The notes below the pieces were generated by a model that saw only the letters and a program-made list of their open reading frames with translations, did no database searches and was not told the DNA's origin. The translations under genes were made by a program, and so were the position numbers. A stretch of DNA of 10,260 bases from a virus (taxonomy: Duplodnaviria; Heunggongvirae; Uroviricota; Caudoviricetes): IMG/VR virus record IMGVR_UViG_3300005660_000003, positions 1 to 10,260 of that record. One strand, 5' to 3'. Position 1 is the first letter of the stretch; every line of letters starts with the position of its first letter. Below are positions 1 through 7,576 of this stretch, piece by piece.

Positions 1-7
1 GTTCTGT
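1..7 (+). other. R' box (GTTCTGT) of an upstream attC truncated by the window edge
   Basis: GTTCTGTGC (1-9) is the exact reverse complement of GCACAGAAC (597-605), the R'' flank of the next attC. Confidence 0.75.
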
Positions 8-159
8 GCCACCTTAGGTACATTACTTCCATCCTCCATGCAGTCTGCCCACATATTTGGCTTAAGTGTAAACCCATCCCAACCTATCGGGCGTTTATAC
101 CCTGTCTCTGTTTTTACTACGTCGTAATTCAACCCTAAACCATATGGAACTCTTTGCAT
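1..159 (-). CDS. Candidate 3'-truncated ORF (MQRVPYGLGLNYDVVKTETGYKRPIGWDGFTLKPNMWADCMEDGSNVPKVAQN...), runs off the window
   Basis: Hand translation: 53 codons with no stop from ATG 159 to position 1. The frame is open back to 357. No clear SD. Not in the track because it has no stop in the window. Confidence 0.3.
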   Translation of the reverse strand, partial: MQRVPYGLGLNYDVVKTETGYKRPIGWDGFTLKPNMWADCMEDGSNVPKVAQN

Positions 160-595
160 GACTGACTCTTTCTCTGAAGATTTATCGATTGCGGCACGTT
201 TCATGTGGAAACACCGAAACGAACCACAGTATTGGACATGGGAATCATTAACAGACCTAAACAAAGTCACAGACTCCCCTAATTTAAACCATGCTGTAGC
301 ATGGAACATTATTACGGTACTCGAAGGAAAGGGGTTCTTATTATCCTTTCCAGAATTTCAAAAAGACGGGCAAATTATCAAGTACCCATTTAAACTTCAT
401 CTTGGTGATCTAAAGGCGTGGCGTCGTATTAAACGATCCCCTTCTTGTTGCACATACTTAATTAATCTATGGGAAGATTTTTCGCCCAAACTCTATGCGT
501 TTATTATTGGTATCTTTTCATTAGCAATAGCATCTGTCATCGTTTACGCCCTACAACGCTACATCGATATCAAATGGCCAGCACCACCAAACTAA
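158..595 (+). CDS. Cassette 1 gene, conventional orientation; hypothetical 145-aa protein with a C-terminal transmembrane helix
   Basis: Stop TAA at 593-595 directly abuts the attC R'' (597-605), as in classic cassettes. Hydrophobic stretch LYAFIIGIFSLAIASVIVYAL. Confidence 0.75.
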   Translation: MTDSFSEDLSIAARFMWKHRNEPQYWTWESLTDLNKVTDSPNLNHAVAWNIITVLEGKGFLLSFPEFQKDGQIIKYPFKLHLGDLKAWRRIKRSPSCCTYLINLWEDFSPKLYAFIIGIFSLAIASVIVYALQRYIDIKWPAPPN

Positions 596-598
596 AGC

Positions 599-689
599 AC
601 AGAACAAAACGATGCACGCCGAGCAACGGTGGTTAGGTTATTGCTGTGGTTTGGTTACCTCCGTTGCCGGGTGATCGTCAGCGTTATTT
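599..689 (+). other. attC site 1 (91 bp)
   Basis: ACAGAAC-aaaac-gat[G]cac[G]ccg[A]gcaacgg ... ccgttgc-cgg-gtg-atc-gtcagc-GTTATTT. Confidence 0.9.
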
Positions 690-857
690 TGAAGACCCGG
701 CAGACCACCGAAACCAATGACGCGGAGTCATGATTTCAAGGCGTGGACCGCTGCCCGACTTCTTTCGCCCAAACAAAAACGCTGTCGTCCGAAAGTGGAG
801 ACAGAACCGACAGCCATAGGCTTGTGTGTACTCCACATCTTTCTGCACATGAACCAT
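684..857 (-). CDS. Cassette 2 inverted ORF, 57 aa (MVHVQKDVEYTQAYGCRFCLHFRTTAFLFGRKKSGSGPRLEIMTPRHWFRWSAGSSK); missing from the ORF track
   Basis: Hand translation. SD-like GAGAGGG just upstream of ATG 857. TAA stop at 686-684 lies in the bottom strand of the attC1 R' box. One CxxC motif. Confidence 0.6.
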   Translation of the reverse strand: MVHVQKDVEYTQAYGCRFCLHFRTTAFLFGRKKSGSGPRLEIMTPRHWFRWSAGSSK

Positions 858-872
858 GATTGCACCCTCTCA

Positions 873-963
873 AAATAACAACAAGTTGTACGCCGAGCAG
901 CGGGCCACCGTGACCCGCTTTACAAAGTGTCCCGCCGCTGCCGGGTAAACTTTGTCGTTCTAC
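873..963 (+). other. attC site 2 (91 bp)
   Basis: AAATAAC-aacaa-gtt[G]tac[G]ccg[A]gcagcgg ... ccgctgc-cgg-gta-aac-tttgtc-GTTCTAC. Confidence 0.9.
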
Positions 964-1244
964 GGATGCCGAACCAGTGAATACGTTTCGACGCTTGCTG
1001 AATACGCTTCCGCAATCCGTTTTGCAAACTTCTGACTCCTCGTTACGGTGCTTTGATCCACTACCGCCGACCATTGCCCGTTTCCGAAATCAAACCAAAA
1101 CCATTCCCCCTTGCTTTTATCTACAACTGCATACAACGTCAGTGGAGACAAAAACCGACCACGCTCAAGCCAACGGCCCCGCGCGTCCATCGCAAGCACC
1201 GCAGAACAATCAGATGCAGCCGAGCCGTCAACGTCGTTCGTCAT
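960..1244 (-). CDS. Cassette 3 inverted ORF, hypothetical 94-aa protein; N-terminus encoded by attC3
   Basis: SD AAGAAAGG 9 nt before ATG 1244, both inside the attC3 loop. TAG stop at 962-960 lies in the attC2 R' box. Aromatic-rich beta-like core (YAVVDKSKGEWFWFDFGNGQW). Confidence 0.7.
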   Translation of the reverse strand: MTNDVDGSAASDCSAVLAMDARGRWLERGRFLSPLTLYAVVDKSKGEWFWFDFGNGQWSAVVDQSTVTRSQKFAKRIAEAYSASVETYSLVRHP

Positions 1245-1305
1245 ATCCTGAAACCTTTCTTATGCAATGCAGGCTCGTCGGCCCGGCTGATCTGAGTCGT
1301 TATGC
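1201..1305 (+). other. attC site 3 (105 bp)
   Basis: GCAGAAC-aatca-gat[G]cagccg-a-gccg ... cggc-c-cggctg-atc-tgagtc-GTTATGC. Confidence 0.88.
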
Positions 1306-1842
1306 AGATACATCTTGACTCGGATACTGCGAACACAATTCACAGCGAAACTGACCACGTTCCTCGTCACTCAAATCCTTGCCGCAGTCTCCACATGTCC
1401 CATACCGCGACTTCTTGCACGTCGGGCAGTATCCAGCTCCGCGACCAGCACAGCCCTGACAGCCCTCCGCGTCTGGAAGCAGCGTTACAAAATCAGCCGC
1501 CATCCTGCGAACGGCGTTCGTAATCGCTTCGCGATATCGCTGCTTGTACTCATCGTTCATCCACCCGGCGACGACTTCAGTCAGCACTGATACGAGTCGT
1601 GTTTCTCCGCAGTTGGCTTTGTACGCTCCGTCTGCTGGCGGTGTCTCCAGTTTCCCATGAGGCACATCAATTAACTGCTCTCGCAGGTCTCGCATTGCTG
1701 CCGCAATTTCGTATTCCTGTGCGTCCATTGCGATCCTGATGGCGGCATCGAAGCTCTTAGCCACAAGTCTGGCTTTGGGCTTGCAGCTCGTCAGGCTATA
1801 CAGCGAAAACAGTAATCTGCCAATATCTTTTTGCGCACTCAT
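1300..1842 (-). CDS. Cassette 4 inverted ORF B, ~180 aa: UVR (UvrB/UvrC-type) motif plus four C-terminal CxxC pairs
   Basis: Start reassigned to ATG 1842, which forms an ATGA overlap with the upstream stop. AMDAQEYEIAAAMRDLREQL fits the UVR motif. CQGC, CPTC, CGDC, CELC. TAA stop at 1302-1300 lies in the attC3 R' box. Confidence 0.75.
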   Translation of the reverse strand: MSAQKDIGRLLFSLYSLTSCKPKARLVAKSFDAAIRIAMDAQEYEIAAAMRDLREQLIDVPHGKLETPPADGAYKANCGETRLVSVLTEVVAGWMNDEYKQRYREAITNAVRRMAADFVTLLPDAEGCQGCAGRGAGYCPTCKKSRYGTCGDCGKDLSDEERGQFRCELCSQYPSQDVSA

Positions 1843-2177
1843 GACTGGAACCCCACAAACGGACGGTTGCAATGATCACACCTGCCTGACGGCAGCCTGT
1901 AGCCAATACCGCAGGTCTGGCACACATACCCAGCCAGATCCTGAATCTCTTCAATCTCACGAAATGCTGCCCCCGCATGCACTGCTGGCTGTAACACTTC
2001 GCCGCTCGCAATCTCAAGCAGTCTGCGACGCATTACTGCGTGTTCTCGCATTAGCCTGTCAACATCTGCGAGCTTGACAAACTTGCCTGTTTTCGACTCC
2101 ATCACAAGCGAGCACTGATACAGCGGAAGCTGCATAACAATGCAATCAACCGGAGTTGCCGACGATGCGTTTTCCAT
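1839..2177 (-). CDS. Cassette 4 inverted ORF A, ~112 aa, C-terminal zinc ribbon (CQTC...CDHC); N-terminus encoded by attC4
   Basis: SD GAAAGG 8 nt before ATG 2177 inside the attC4 loop; alternative TTG start at 2183. Stop overlaps the start of ORF B. Confidence 0.7.
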   Translation of the reverse strand: MENASSATPVDCIVMQLPLYQCSLVMESKTGKFVKLADVDRLMREHAVMRRRLLEIASGEVLQPAVHAGAAFREIEEIQDLAGYVCQTCGIGYRLPSGRCDHCNRPFVGFQS

Positions 2178-2222
2178 GATCAAAACCTTTCACCGGCAAC
2201 CCGGTTATTGCAAGCGTTCGCC
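2132..2222 (+). other. attC site 4 (91 bp), canonical structure
   Basis: GCATAAC-aatgc-aat[C]aaccgg[A]gttgccg ... cggcaac-ccggtt-att-gcaagc-GTTCGCC. Top-strand extrahelical C and A correspond to bottom-strand G and T, as in classical attC sites. Confidence 0.93.
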
Positions 2223-2254
2223 GCCACACTCTTCTCTTCAATCTCTCTCTTCAT
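2180..2254 (-). CDS. 24-aa peptide MKREIEEKSVAANACNNRVAGERF translated through the right arm of attC4
   Basis: Strong SD TAGGAG 7 nt before ATG 2254. TGA stop in the attC4 loop overlaps TTG 2183 and lies 2 nt before ATG 2177. Confidence 0.5.
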   Translation of the reverse strand: MKREIEEKSVAANACNNRVAGERF

Positions 2255-2340
2255 TTTCTTCTCCTAAATAAAAGTTTTCAAATTCTGCACTAAAATTCCC
2301 GAATTCTTCGGACAAATCAAGCCCCTCATGCGATTCGCTT

Positions 2341-2430
2341 ATGGGATTTTTTCGTTTCACTCTGGGGATCGACATGGAGATTCTCGTCATCATTTGCTTG
2401 CTCATCTGGAATTACGTTTCAAGCGATTAA
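2341..2430 (+). CDS. Small hydrophobic peptide, 29 aa (MGFFRFTLGIDMEILVIICLLIWNYVSSD) or 18 aa from ATG 2374
   Basis: Hand translation. GGGGA precedes ATG 2374. Its TAA merges into the SD (TAAGGGG) of the next peptide. Confidence 0.45.
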   Translation: MGFFRFTLGIDMEILVIICLLIWNYVSSD

Positions 2431-2439
2431 GGGGTTACT

Positions 2440-2520
2440 ATGGCCGCAATACAGTTTCTCTTTGGTTTGGCCCTCGGGGTCTTTGTCCTTACCATAACGA
2501 AAGAAAAGAAACGACAATGA
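2440..2520 (+). CDS. 26-aa single-TM peptide with basic tail (MAAIQFLFGLALGVFVLTITKEKKRQ)
   Basis: SD TAAGGGG 5 nt upstream. Its stop overlaps the next start (ATGA 2517-2520). Confidence 0.55.
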   Translation: MAAIQFLFGLALGVFVLTITKEKKRQ

Positions 2521-2720
2521 ATTTCGCAAACCTTACACCAATGCCGAGCTCTTCAACTAATCAAAACGTTTTCATCAATCCTGCGTTCGTCACTCACGTT
2601 GGCAGTGATGCTGGCGGTACAACGATCATCTTCTTTAGCGGTGGCACGTCCACCACAATTGATGACACTCCGGCTCGTGTAGTCGAAGAATTGATTAAGG
2701 CCAGCAATTCATCTGTGTGA
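2517..2720 (+). CDS. 67-aa small beta-rich protein, FlbD-like pattern (true start probably 2517, not 2328)
   Basis: MNFANLT...VFINPAFVTHV...TTIIFFSGG...IDDTPARVVEEL resembles the FlbD-type pattern by eye. ATGA coupling to the upstream peptide. Confidence 0.6.
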   Translation: MNFANLTPMPSSSTNQNVFINPAFVTHVGSDAGGTTIIFFSGGTSTTIDDTPARVVEELIKASNSSV

Positions 2721-3034
2721 ACTGGCACATCAATTTTTGTCCCATTGTCTAGATGAGCAAAACAACTTTCACGCCTCCACTTTTGCCAGTATCCTTCGTT
2801 GGTGATTGCCACAATTCTACTCGGATCCACCACGCAAAAGGTATGTTCCACTTCGTGGACCTTCGCTTCTTCTGGTGCCTGCCCAAATTCATGGAATGTG
2901 CTTAGGTCATCATTCACATGATATTTCCCCCTAAACACTAAAAGCGGCGAACAAAGCGTTGAACCCGAGCTACCGGTGTCGGGTTCTGGGGTGGTTTGGG
3001 TTCCGGCGGCAGCCGGGTTAACTTGGTCGTTCAT
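2594..3034 (-). CDS. Cassette 5 inverted ORF (146 aa from ATG 3034, reading through attC5; alternative GTG start at 2917); C-terminal half FlbD-like pattern
   Basis: ATG overlaps the TGA of the upstream phage gene. SD AGGGGG lies 9 nt before in-frame GTG 2917. VVDPSRIVAI...CFAHLDNGTKIDV...DELLALIN. Confidence 0.65.
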   Translation of the reverse strand: MNDQVNPAAAGTQTTPEPDTGSSGSTLCSPLLVFRGKYHVNDDLSTFHEFGQAPEEAKVHEVEHTFCVVDPSRIVAITNEGYWQKWRRESCFAHLDNGTKIDVPVHTDELLALINSSTTRAGVSSIVVDVPPLKKMIVVPPASLPT

Positions 3035-3035
3035 A
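2946..3035 (+). other. attC site 5 (90 bp), distal end of the array
   Basis: GGCGAAC-aaagc-gtt[G]aacccg[A]gctaccg ... cggcagc-cgggtt-aac-ttggtc-GTTCATA. Confidence 0.88.
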
Positions 3036-3516
3036 AATATTCCTCTATCTGATCTAAGTCAGAAATTTTAATGTTAAAACAATCACACTTTACTTTAAAA
3101 TGTGTACCTTCTTCTATTTCATCCTTTTTAAGGAATTGGGCTTTCTCCATAAAAGCTACTACGGGGATTATACCCAAACAATAAGCTGTGGATAAGTCGT
3201 TGGTTATTCTATAAAAAGCATAATGACTACACTCTTTTTTCTTCACTTGGTACGCTGCAACTGTACAAGAATAGGAATCCAGTGGTCTCGAAGAGCACCT
3301 CTTAGCTTTAATATCAATACACCCTATTTTTGCGTGAGCAACATCATAATTATAAGAGTCTACTAGCTCTCCGCCATAAGTGTCGAGAAAAAGTTCCTCA
3401 GCAACCATACCAGCTAGCTCCCCATCACTACAAATCTTTTTACTATTTTCACCGATTTTGCTTGCTCTGGCTTGAGCTTTGCTCAAGACAGCTTCAGAGA
3501 CTTCTAATTCTGTCAA
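3031..3516 (-). CDS. Phage PD-(D/E)XK restriction-endonuclease-fold protein (putative)
   Basis: Motifs GMVAEE, NYD and CIDIKAK fit an E...D...(D/E)xK active site. TTG start with SD GGAGGAGG overlaps the recA stop. Confidence 0.6.
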   Translation of the reverse strand: MTELEVSEAVLSKAQARASKIGENSKKICSDGELAGMVAEELFLDTYGGELVDSYNYDVAHAKIGCIDIKAKRCSSRPLDSYSCTVAAYQVKKKECSHYAFYRITNDLSTAYCLGIIPVVAFMEKAQFLKKDEIEEGTHFKVKCDCFNIKISDLDQIEEYL

Positions 3517-4598
3517 GCTTCCTCCTCCCCATCTTCTTCCGGAGGAACAAAATCATAAGATATTGAATACTTTTCTATAAAATAATCCTTTATAATCTTT
3601 TGAAAAAGTTCCAAGTTTTCTTCTATTACAGCTACTGCTTTATCTGACCCCTGAGCTCTTATTTCTGTACCATCTGGTAACATAAAATAATACCACGCAC
3701 CCTTAGTGGTTAACAATCCTGTTTCTGGTAAAACTTCTAGGGCCTCCATAGCCCAATAAATACCCTCACCAAACCTAAGATAAGAATTAATAGGATTTTC
3801 CTTACTAACATAAGGGGCAAGTTTCTTATTATACGGCATTTGCCATTTAATTAGTTGGCCCTTCAGGCTTTCACCGTCTTTATTATTTAGTCTACTACCA
3901 TCCCAATCATACGGTTTGTGGCGAGCCTCTAAAACTATATCACATTCATATTCAAGTTTTACACCACCATCTGGCACTAATGGATCACCATACCCGGAGG
4001 TATTTGTGATAAAGTGTTGAATACCTATTACAATAGATCTAGTAGTACGAACAAGATTACCTATCTTTTTACAAAAATCCGCATTAAGTTTTGGGGTAGT
4101 GTCTCGCCTATTACCCTTAATGTCAATGTCGTTAAGAGTATCTTCTGGAATTATTTTAGAAAATGAATCTATTACATAAACTGCCCCTTTATACTTAGGA
4201 AGACCCATCATATCTTTAATGGTTTTGTATATTTTATCTCCAGATAAAACGGGGACACCCTCCTGAGATCTTAATATTAAAAATTTGGGATTATTTATAT
4301 CTAATCCTTTAATTTGAAAGTATTTTTCCCCAAGTAATCTACATTCAACATCGGCATAAATAACATATCTTCCTTGAGCTAGGGCGTTGGTCGCTATTTG
4401 CATAGCACACATCGACTTCCCGAGTTTAGGCGGGGTCCTAATAAGAACCAAACTTCCCTCTGGGATTCCACCTCCAAGTTTAGCATCTAGGGAAGGACCA
4501 ACAGATACAACGTATGGACTTGCTTTTTCTTTTGTAATTATACTAGCAGCACTTTGGAATAAGTTTTTATCTATAAGTGGTTTTTTGGCTTTAGCCAT
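3513..4598 (-). CDS. recA: RecA/UvsX-family recombinase (phage type)
   Basis: SLDAKLGGGIPEG, P-loop variant TPPKLGKS, YADVE, Walker B VYVIDS, DGGVKLEYECD, C-terminal KGAWY and QG motifs, acidic tail; 361 aa. Confidence 0.9.
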   Translation of the reverse strand: MAKAKKPLIDKNLFQSAASIITKEKASPYVVSVGPSLDAKLGGGIPEGSLVLIRTPPKLGKSMCAMQIATNALAQGRYVIYADVECRLLGEKYFQIKGLDINNPKFLILRSQEGVPVLSGDKIYKTIKDMMGLPKYKGAVYVIDSFSKIIPEDTLNDIDIKGNRRDTTPKLNADFCKKIGNLVRTTRSIVIGIQHFITNTSGYGDPLVPDGGVKLEYECDIVLEARHKPYDWDGSRLNNKDGESLKGQLIKWQMPYNKKLAPYVSKENPINSYLRFGEGIYWAMEALEVLPETGLLTTKGAWYYFMLPDGTEIRAQGSDKAVAVIEENLELFQKIIKDYFIEKYSISYDFVPPEEDGEEEA

Positions 4599-6970: not shown

Positions 6971-7576
6971 TCACTGAGTTTCCAGCTCTGCAAGGTACTT
7001 GAGGCAGATCTGAGACCACGTTTCAAATTCATCGATTTGCCCCACCAATTCTGACGGTGGTGCGAATCCTGCGTTTATCATCGACTTTTCACGGGGCTGA
7101 ACTTTGGGTTTGTCCAAATTGAAAATATGAACTATCCCAAGATGAACTTTCCCAACTTCTGTTTCATCGTCGTTGATTAACCCAACGCACTTTTCTGTCC
7201 AGTCTGCCTGAATCTCCACCTCTTCCTCAATCTCCCGTTTCATTCCTTCAAGATACGGAGACTGCACACCATCGAGGTCCAGTGTTGAGACATGGCCGCC
7301 GACGCCGACCGATCGCTTGGCGTGCAACCGCGCTTCTCCCTGAGCCGTTCCACGCTGATAGAAGAAGATCTCGCCGTTGCAACGAAACACGCAGTACGGG
7401 ATCAGCTGCTTGAAGGTGGGATCCTGCTCCATCTCAGGTCGAGGCCGATAGCTGGCGTGTTGCGGATCCAGAATCACCTGCAGGTAACGCTCGATGTCGC
7501 TGCTGAATCCCTGAAAATGACCGACCTGAAGAAAGACGGGAGTTGGAATGACCAAAACACGCTCATTTAACGACAT
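6971..7576 (-). CDS. NUDIX-family predicted phosphoesterase (YmaB/COG4112-like), cellular-type sequence
   Basis: [20 protein letters not shown], Nudix box [28 protein letters not shown] clearly higher than the flanks (spot counts 40-63% vs 23-30%). Confidence 0.88.

Follow-up and report, generated by a model that had tools for sequence, protein, structure and literature searches.

Relation to described integron systems

[quoted passage not shown] That paper also deals with Vibrio anguillarum phages that carry fragments of Vibrio chromosomal integrons. Insertion of cassettes by IntI enzymes at GWT attG sites has been documented as well, and single attC sites lacking integron integrases (SALINs) have been defined (Loot et al., bioRxiv 10.1101/2022.09.11.507474). 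Here, we analysed a DNA stretch of 10,260 nucleotides, referred to below as the window, which forms the left end of the linear IMG/VR virus record IMGVR_UViG_3300005660_000003 (G000; 117,774 bp) and in which five integron-type cassettes, each with its attC site, adjoin genes of a tailed phage. The evidence gathered makes it very probable that these cassettes belong to an integrase-less array of 11 attC sites, located in the replication and recombination region of the phage genome, with sites of the type found in Planctomycetota and with cassettes moved by the IntI of the host.

Like the phage CALINs of Qi et al., the array consists of attC-bounded cassettes with no intI gene nearby, and those authors proposed the same logic of a bacterial integrase acting in trans and the same part in horizontal transfer. 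It differs from them in that the phage is uncultured and has a genome of at least 153 kb with 11 + 1 attC sites of the Planctomycetota type, and in that a near-identical cassette is found at a bacterial attI site, in a cassette order that differs by whole units. In the available passages of that paper, no named phage corresponds to the present one or is assigned a Planctomycetota host. The V. anguillarum phages described there likewise harbour pieces of host-type arrays in their genomes, their host phylum and attC family being different. The initial annotation of this DNA, made from the letters alone, had stated that attC sites are mostly described from cells, a view that the report of CALINs in virulent phages has made outdated. 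Compared with the chromosomal integrons of Planctomycetota, the phage array has the same attC family, the same bulged G and A positions and the same orientation relative to the cassette sense, but it lacks intI, attI and a Pc promoter, runs antisense to the surrounding phage genes and contains at least one inverted cassette (cassette 4). Finally, a solitary cassette elsewhere in the phage and the right end of the array both abut non-att DNA at a bare G/TT, which fits a GWT target and recalls attG sites and SALINs; the work of Loot et al. concerned bacterial chromosomes and IntI1, IntI2 and IntI3, whereas here the target is phage DNA and the enzyme presumably an IntI of Planctomycetota. The locus extends the known picture; new are the phylum of the host, an array as large as 11 + 1 sites and the direct match between a phage and a bacterial cassette.

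The attC sites and the cassettes that they delimit

The window harbours five sites that span from AAC to GTT on the plus strand (Table 1), all of them where the initial annotation had placed them and with full attC geometry and covarying stems. From AAC, the R''/L'' arm comprises 5 unpaired nucleotides, a 3-nucleotide L'' box, a bulge, 6-7 bp, a bulged A, the stem and a variable loop. No bulge occurs on the arm that leads back, which consists of the stem, the L' box, 6 unpaired nucleotides and GTT, the spacers being asymmetric (N5 on the R'' side versus N6 on the R' side). AAC and GTT are invariant in the five sites and kept in 45-47 of 47 sites of the family, and the RYYY/RRRY positions that flank them show a loose fit only. 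On the top strand, the first bulge is a G in four of the five sites and a C in site 4. The textbook attC site has a G at its first bulge on the bottom strand, where four of the five window sites have a C.

In the alignment of the five sites, 94.7% of the cells are paired and 10 of the 19 pairs have changed on both sides, with a covariation score of 0.47 versus 0.17 for shuffled alignments and at most 0.14 for slid partners. A larger alignment of 47 sites, taken from one bacterium (G001, see below), the window phage and two other virus records, is 98.2% paired, with compensatory changes in 14 of 19 pairs and a score of 0.52 versus 0.13 for the control. None of 500 shuffles reached the observed values, and the slid controls remained at or below 0.055. 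The two bulge columns of this alignment hold G in 45 and A in 47 of the 47 sites on the top strand.

We built a covariance model, R1, from the five window sites only. It retrieved in the whole 117.8-kb contig these five sites, with the scores listed in Table 1, and one further site, indicating that the pattern does not arise by chance. A regular expression derived from the five sites found nothing else similar in the window, and the attC4 hairpin has a z of -4.7. Pattern matches in two other IMG/VR records (L045 and L046) were discarded as chance matches, R1 giving no score there.

Hairpins located 3' of genes can serve as terminators, and a scan of the window against Rfam 15 gave no match at E <= 1; one might accordingly view these structures as repeats of the phage itself, terminators or elements resembling repetitive extragenic palindromes (REP-like), that merely look like attC sites. 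This explanation, whose probability we consider negligible, accounts neither for the R1 matches of 45-78 bits in arrays beside true bacterial IntI genes nor for the R'' complementarity and the cassette-wise rearrangements described below. Judged by their sequences, the five sites are confirmed as genuine integron attC recombination sites.

In each site, the R'' box, taken as the seven to ten bases up to and including AAC, pairs in reverse complement with the start of the cassette to which it belongs, the preceding G included. For cassettes 1 to 5, the complementary runs comprise 9, 10, 5 (8/9), 9 and 9 bases, versus 3-6 bases in off-diagonal comparisons, and this match fixes the cassette units given in Table 1. 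Their lengths of 682, 274, 342, 917 and 813 bp agree with the spacing of 270-920 bp initially noted. Such complementarity is the predicted footprint of passage through a closed circular cassette intermediate. The same relation holds at the left edge, where the window opens with 9 bases (GTTCTGTGC) that, in reverse complement, equal the 9 bases ending in the AAC of attC1; in longer contigs, an attC site of 80.8 bits ends at the window start. Along the full array, the chain of R'' and R' boxes is kept at 10 of 11 sites.

The array lies within the genome of a large phage

The array was traced beyond the window in L063, a sequence from an 83.5-kb contig that matches the window over its full length with 100% identity and extends 8.7 kb further left. 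R1 identified six additional sites there, which brings the array to 11 attC sites over 6.1 kb, all co-oriented and 274-917 bp apart, the window holding the right-hand five cassettes. To the left of the array are genes for GP88-like and ferredoxin-like proteins, DnaB, a PD-(D/E)XK nuclease, a split DNA polymerase III alpha subunit, SSB and a glycosyltransferase, and to its right come a gene for a 161-aa protein, uvsX and phoH. At the right-hand junction, the GTT of attC5 (3029-3031) shares its last base with the stop codon of the 161-aa gene (TCA, 3031-3033, minus strand), and the array thus ends at a phage stop codon, as originally read. The 180-aa protein encoded in cassette 4 is letter-identical on 15 contigs of ENA, JGI and Logan assemblies.

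We considered whether a bacterial integron array might have been misjoined to a phage contig by the assembler. The GC content, approximately 0.52 over bases 600-3031 of the window, drops sharply to approximately 0.37 at 3031, the array sits at the end of G000, and cassette 1, which also occurs in a bacterial genome from related samples, is a repeat able to confuse assemblers. However, at least nine contigs, assembled independently from different samples and with different assemblers, show the identical junction, phage DNA flanks the array on both sides in L063, L064 and L067, and the join lies at the exact G/TT recombination point with no shared k-mer. In addition, G000 carries a further cassette in mid-contig, and cassette 1 as found in the bacterium deviates from the phage copy at 3 bases and has other neighbours. 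A chimera would need several independent misjoins at recombination points in many assemblies; it is excluded for practical purposes, with a very small probability left to it, and the misassembly that the initial annotation had named as its possible refutation is contradicted by the independent assemblies, by the phage DNA on both sides and by the internal solitary cassette. Altogether, the data support the array as a physical part of a tailed-phage genome. Three contigs (G000, L065 and L070) end exactly at base 1 of the window, on the G of G/TT, which may reflect the sharing of cassette 1 with the bacterial integron, as a repeat with two left contexts.

The phage is a large, uncultured tailed phage with a genome of at least 153 kb. 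We examined approximately 153 kb of its DNA: to G000, contig walking added 26 kb leftward and 9 kb rightward, and the ends do not overlap. Further contigs imply more than 60 kb of additional phage genome, and CheckV estimates the completeness of G000 at 67%. Phage identity, for which the initial annotation had proposed a check, is borne out by genes for a large terminase, a portal protein and a tail spike; G000 also encodes NrdA, NrdB and UvsX, and DnaB is encoded on the left-extending contigs. To the right of the array, the window consists of a run of minus-strand genes with a GC content of approximately 0.37, including those for UvsX/RecA and, annotated further right on contigs identical to the window, PhoH, in agreement with the AT-rich recA/phoH operon first described. 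A megablast search of the window against GenBank phages yielded no match, and neither UvsX nor the 161-aa neighbour retrieved any relatives in searches for related loci.

A solitary cassette in the same phage

The sixth R1 match in G000 is a twelfth attC site (56 bits) at 33,329-33,419, approximately 30 kb from the array. It belongs to a cassette of 310 bp with an 11-base match between R'' and cassette start (Table 1). This cassette is surrounded by AT-rich phage DNA, between a tRNA-like sequence and a small gene that neighbours nrdB, and its structure identifies it as a putative SALIN-like insertion in the same phage. One contig, L128, ends exactly at the G/TT of the solitary cassette, and we suspect a polymorphism of phages with and without it. 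The predicted empty site gave 0 metagenome matches, in a search in which the phage flank to the right of the array, although present in JGI contigs, likewise gave 0.

Related bacterial integrons and the probable host

A motif scan of species genomes, combined with R1, revealed the same attC family in metagenome-assembled genomes (MAGs) of Planctomycetaceae and in Fuerstiella, Pirellula and Pirellulaceae. In a Planctomycetaceae MAG (G001), contig 17 encodes an IntI at 43,346-44,293 (TIGR02249, 410 bits; cut-off 265) and harbours at least 28 sites of 45-78 bits across 22.2-42.3 kb, all of which read away from intI and delimit cassettes with mostly one long sense open reading frame (ORF) each. 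The orientation of these sites relative to IntI shows that the plus strand of the window corresponds to the conventional top strand and that the integrase-proximal side would be on the left.

The 145-aa protein of cassette 1 was found, identical, on two bacterial contigs, L078 (ENA) and L080 (JGI), and the metagenome that yielded the bacterial integron with cassette 1 shares its ENA accession series with the phage. On both contigs, the order is GrpE-like and HSP70-family genes, intI, approximately 200 nt of attI, G/TT, cassette 1 and cassette 5, with a 443-aa IntI coded on the opposite strand (TIGR02249, 433.8 bits). Cassette 1 at attI is 99.57% identical to the phage copy over 691 nt, and the start of cassette 5 (96% identity) comes directly after attC1. 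On another contig (L083), cassette 1 is followed by a 92% variant of cassette 4. From the sharing of cassettes, together with differences by whole cassettes cut at G/TT, we infer a signature of IntI activity.

The L078 IntI shares 79% identity with a fragmentary IntI from a Planctomycetaceae MAG and 54% with one from Fuerstiella, in support of a Planctomycetaceae host. As the attC family is the one used by chromosomal integrons of Planctomycetota, members of this phylum (Planctomycetaceae/Pirellulaceae) are the likely hosts of the phage. The HSP70-family gene that adjoins the bacterial intI had no match in five Planctomycetota genomes.

A single crossover of attC with GTT, between a circular phage and a host array, would also generate the 3029/3030 junction, in which case the phage would be a prophage or an IntI-made cointegrate inside a host chromosomal integron and the array would be bacterial. 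Nevertheless, phage genes enclose the 6.1-kb array at either end, and no intI, attI or bacterial gene lies between them, and the bacterial integron that shares cassette 1 is on a separate contig, beside the GrpE-like and HSP70-family genes. We regard such a configuration as extremely improbable.

Source of the integrase and proposed exchange

Searches of the 117.8 kb of G000 with PF00589 and TIGR02249 gave no match and thus no tyrosine recombinase, and tblastn with a host-type IntI gave no match in the extra 35 kb of phage DNA (26 kb left, 9 kb right). The phage DNA examined contains no counterpart of attI, and the head of the array abuts the GP88-like and DnaB genes with no remnant of IntI. 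In the DNA examined, the phage array is a CALIN and not a complete integron. Two sources of integrase had been envisaged in the initial annotation. An IntI of the phage itself, encoded to the left of the window, is at odds with the six attC sites followed by replication genes that we found there, with neither integrase nor attI. An IntI of the host acting in trans gains support from the presence of the same cassette at the attI of a bacterial integron. The phage had also been described as apparently lytic, for which the only ground is the lack of an integrase in an incomplete genome.

It could be argued that the unsampled part of the phage genome holds an integron integrase and an attI of the phage itself and that the array is the distal part of a complete integron. 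G000 is incomplete and the genome extends well beyond the sampled DNA; moreover, complete integrons are reported in temperate phages (PMC9892861). We judge this improbable in view of the negative integrase searches, of the ordinary phage genes without attI on both flanks of the array and of the same cassette at a bacterial attI. Furthermore, two IMG/VR records rated 100% complete contain the same attC family and no IntI. The first of them (G010, 55.8 kb, rated by CheckV) has a clear large terminase, and the other (G007, 70.7 kb, with terminal repeats) has approximately 7 sites across its ends, a primase being its only confirmed protein.

Exchange of cassettes between phage and host through the host integrase is the most likely scenario. 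During infection, the integron integrase of the host would fold the bottom strand of attC and recombine it at G/TT, its partner being a plain GTT of the phage DNA (attG-type) or an attC site that the phage already carries. Whole cassettes would move in this manner between the host integron and the phage, which would keep them as accessory genes and could carry them to other cells. In this scheme, we infer the catalysis by IntI, the direction of transfer and the expression of the cargo.

Several points weigh against this interpretation. The host assignment draws on the attC family and IntI similarity only, and the phage, with a GC content of 0.37, is much poorer in GC than the proposed hosts (approximately 0.54). 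The incompleteness of the phage genome (CheckV 67%, more than 60 kb still to be added) leaves room for a phage-encoded integrase. On its left side, the array lacks the GTTCTGC expected as a cassette start, none being present within 800 bp of the leftmost attC site. All phage contigs found represent one genotype, with no empty-site or differently filled variant among them, so that cassette turnover inside the phage is hypothetical. Lastly, the evidence for the junctions comes from assembled contigs only.

Other observations concern the left part of the array. The similarity of the leftmost attC to its near-duplicate starts exactly at R''. In L063 (-3105 to 7 in window-style coordinates), sites 0 and 3 are near-duplicate attC sites, and several cassettes resemble one another in their first 40-60 bases, among them those after sites 0 and 3 and those after sites 1 and 4 (84-85% identity), which suggests a shared leader or a recent duplication.

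Cargo of the cassettes and neighbouring genes

The protein of cassette 1 belongs to a small conserved family (48-62% identity) with invariant motifs. A homologue with 62% identity is encoded in sense orientation in a different array, by a cassette with an attC site at either end. The AlphaFold model is poor, with a predicted local distance difference test (pLDDT) value of 65 and a predicted template modelling (pTM) score of 0.34; as a lead only, the secondary structure of the protein suggests a small helical or hairpin domain followed by a membrane helix. An open-ended 103-aa ORF on the minus strand (1-309), which reaches 230 aa in longer contigs and runs through the preceding attC, is probably spurious as it overlaps the conserved sense gene. 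Cassette 2 contains just ORFs of 53-57 aa on either strand, and its coding strand is ambiguous.

The two minus-strand genes of cassette 4 overlap by ATGA. For the 180-aa frame, mismatches at codon position 3 account for 27 of 47 and 60 of 91 in two comparisons. The ORF stays open at 82% DNA identity, and the protein identity of 87% is above that of every other frame; this pattern indicates purifying selection on the frame. The protein has 21 matches at E <= 0.001, the window's own entry included. A 131-aa homologue is coded on an 88-kb contig (L072:7684-8396; NCBI GCA_033813855.1), with 92% identity over its C-terminal half, and adjoins a single attC-like site (36 bits). With its genes for a YqaJ exonuclease and for P22-like and sigma-70-like proteins, that region looks like another phage or a prophage.

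The junction with cassette 5 also presents an ATGA (3031-3034), at which the stop codon of the 161-aa gene overlaps the ATG of a putative 146-aa ORF (2594-3034, minus strand). This ORF reads through attC5 into cassette 5 and is annotated by gene callers in every contig. A likeness suspected between two small sense ORFs proved not significant.

Approximately 20 cassette ORFs were compared with Pfam and PHROGs, with no match save a sub-threshold zinc ribbon in the 112-aa protein of cassette 4, and a search of the ESM Atlas with the cassette cargo gave matches at or below 0.78 only. The phage genes that flank the array all lie on the minus strand, and the sense cassettes are consequently antisense to phage transcription; presumably, read-through could reach only the inverted ones.

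The 161-aa protein next to the array has no Pfam or PHROG match, and its homologues are found only within its own cluster. A second GC-rich island is present at 6971-7576 (minus strand; GC 0.51-0.53 versus a background of 0.35), with a 201-aa gene that matches phrog_8902 (1e-37, unknown function); as no attC site is found nearby, it is not a cassette of the attC type studied here. Elsewhere in G000, the large terminase gene (100994-106039) codes for 1681 aa with intein and LAGLIDADG matches, and NrdA (1068 aa; 34773-37979) also contains a LAGLIDADG domain. Inteins and homing endonucleases are abundant in this phage.

Table 1. Coordinates of the array, its cargo and neighbouring phage genes, and of the solitary cassette. 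Positions refer to the window unless preceded by a record name.
Feature	Position	Strand	Details
GTT in the R' box of the attC before cassette 1	1-3	+	Window starts at the G/TT boundary of cassette 1
Cassette 1 (body GC 0.41), with attC1 603-685	2-683	+	R1 85.5 bits
Cassette 2, with attC2 877-959	684-957	+	R1 84.4 bits; R'' AAATAAC versus start GTTATTT
Cassette 3, with attC3 1205-1301 (long loop)	958-1299	+	R1 68.8 bits; R''/start 6/7
Cassette 4, with attC4 2136-2218	1300-2216	+	R1 82.8 bits
Cassette 5, with attC5 2950-3031	2217-3029	+	R1 84.6 bits; R'' GGCGAAC versus start GTTCGCC
Array-phage junction, G/TT crossover at 3029/3030	3029-3033		Direct reading; GC step
Cassette 1, sense gene	158-595	+	145 aa; C-terminal membrane helix
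Cassette 3, candidate inverted ORF	960-1244	-	94 aa; start in attC3 loop
Cassette 4, gene for Cys-rich protein	1300-1842	-	180 aa; inverted
Cassette 4, gene with zinc ribbon (sub-threshold)	1839-2177	-	112 aa; inverted; start in attC4 loop
Cassette 5, small sense ORF (example)	2517-2720	+	67 aa; competes with minus-strand ORF 2594-3034
Phage gene, no known family	3031-3516	-	161 aa; ORF call; right-hand neighbour of the array
UvsX/RecA-like recombinase	3513-4598	-	phrog_97 2e-27; PF00154 4e-08
Solitary cassette	G000 33104-33413 (= L048:3304-3613)		310 bp; R1 56 bits; G/TT at both ends

Composition, distribution and significance

The cassette bodies of the phage array have a GC content of approximately 0.41 in 6 of 10 cases, 0.45 in cassette 5 and 0.51-0.54 in cassettes 2-4, versus 0.49-0.57 in the cassette bodies of the G001 integron. 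The attC sites of the array range from 0.51 to 0.64, and those of the six cassettes of approximately 0.41 from 0.56 to 0.64. In the bacterial setting, cassette 1 (GC 0.41) is an outlier between flanks of 0.54-0.56, and it occupies the attI-proximal position, that of the most recently acquired cassette. This composition is the basis for a reading in which phages feed the integrons of their hosts. Traffic in both directions, with the phage array as a working gene bank and not a dead-end by-product, is nevertheless a tentative proposal, which we hold to be rather doubtful at present. If true, integron cassettes would not only be carried by phages but also originate from them, and inverted cassettes such as cassette 4 would be expressed by read-through from the minus-strand replication and recombination operon.

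A second motif scan of IMG/VR retrieved 33 loci (L085-L117) with 163 R1 matches to the same attC family and up to approximately 15 sites per locus. None of these loci is closely related to the window phage, and no IntI above cut-off was found in the ten largest of the records. The attC family is thus common in virus records of IMG/VR, and it provides a lead to the host, Planctomycetota, for a large uncultured phage.

Integrons have been studied almost wholly as bacterial systems, and the origin of cassettes and their movement between lineages are open questions. The locus described here offers a natural example of one cassette that a phage array shares with a bacterial integron, where it occupies the insertion site, the cassette order differing by whole units, and it thereby makes the exchange of cassettes between phage and host directly testable.

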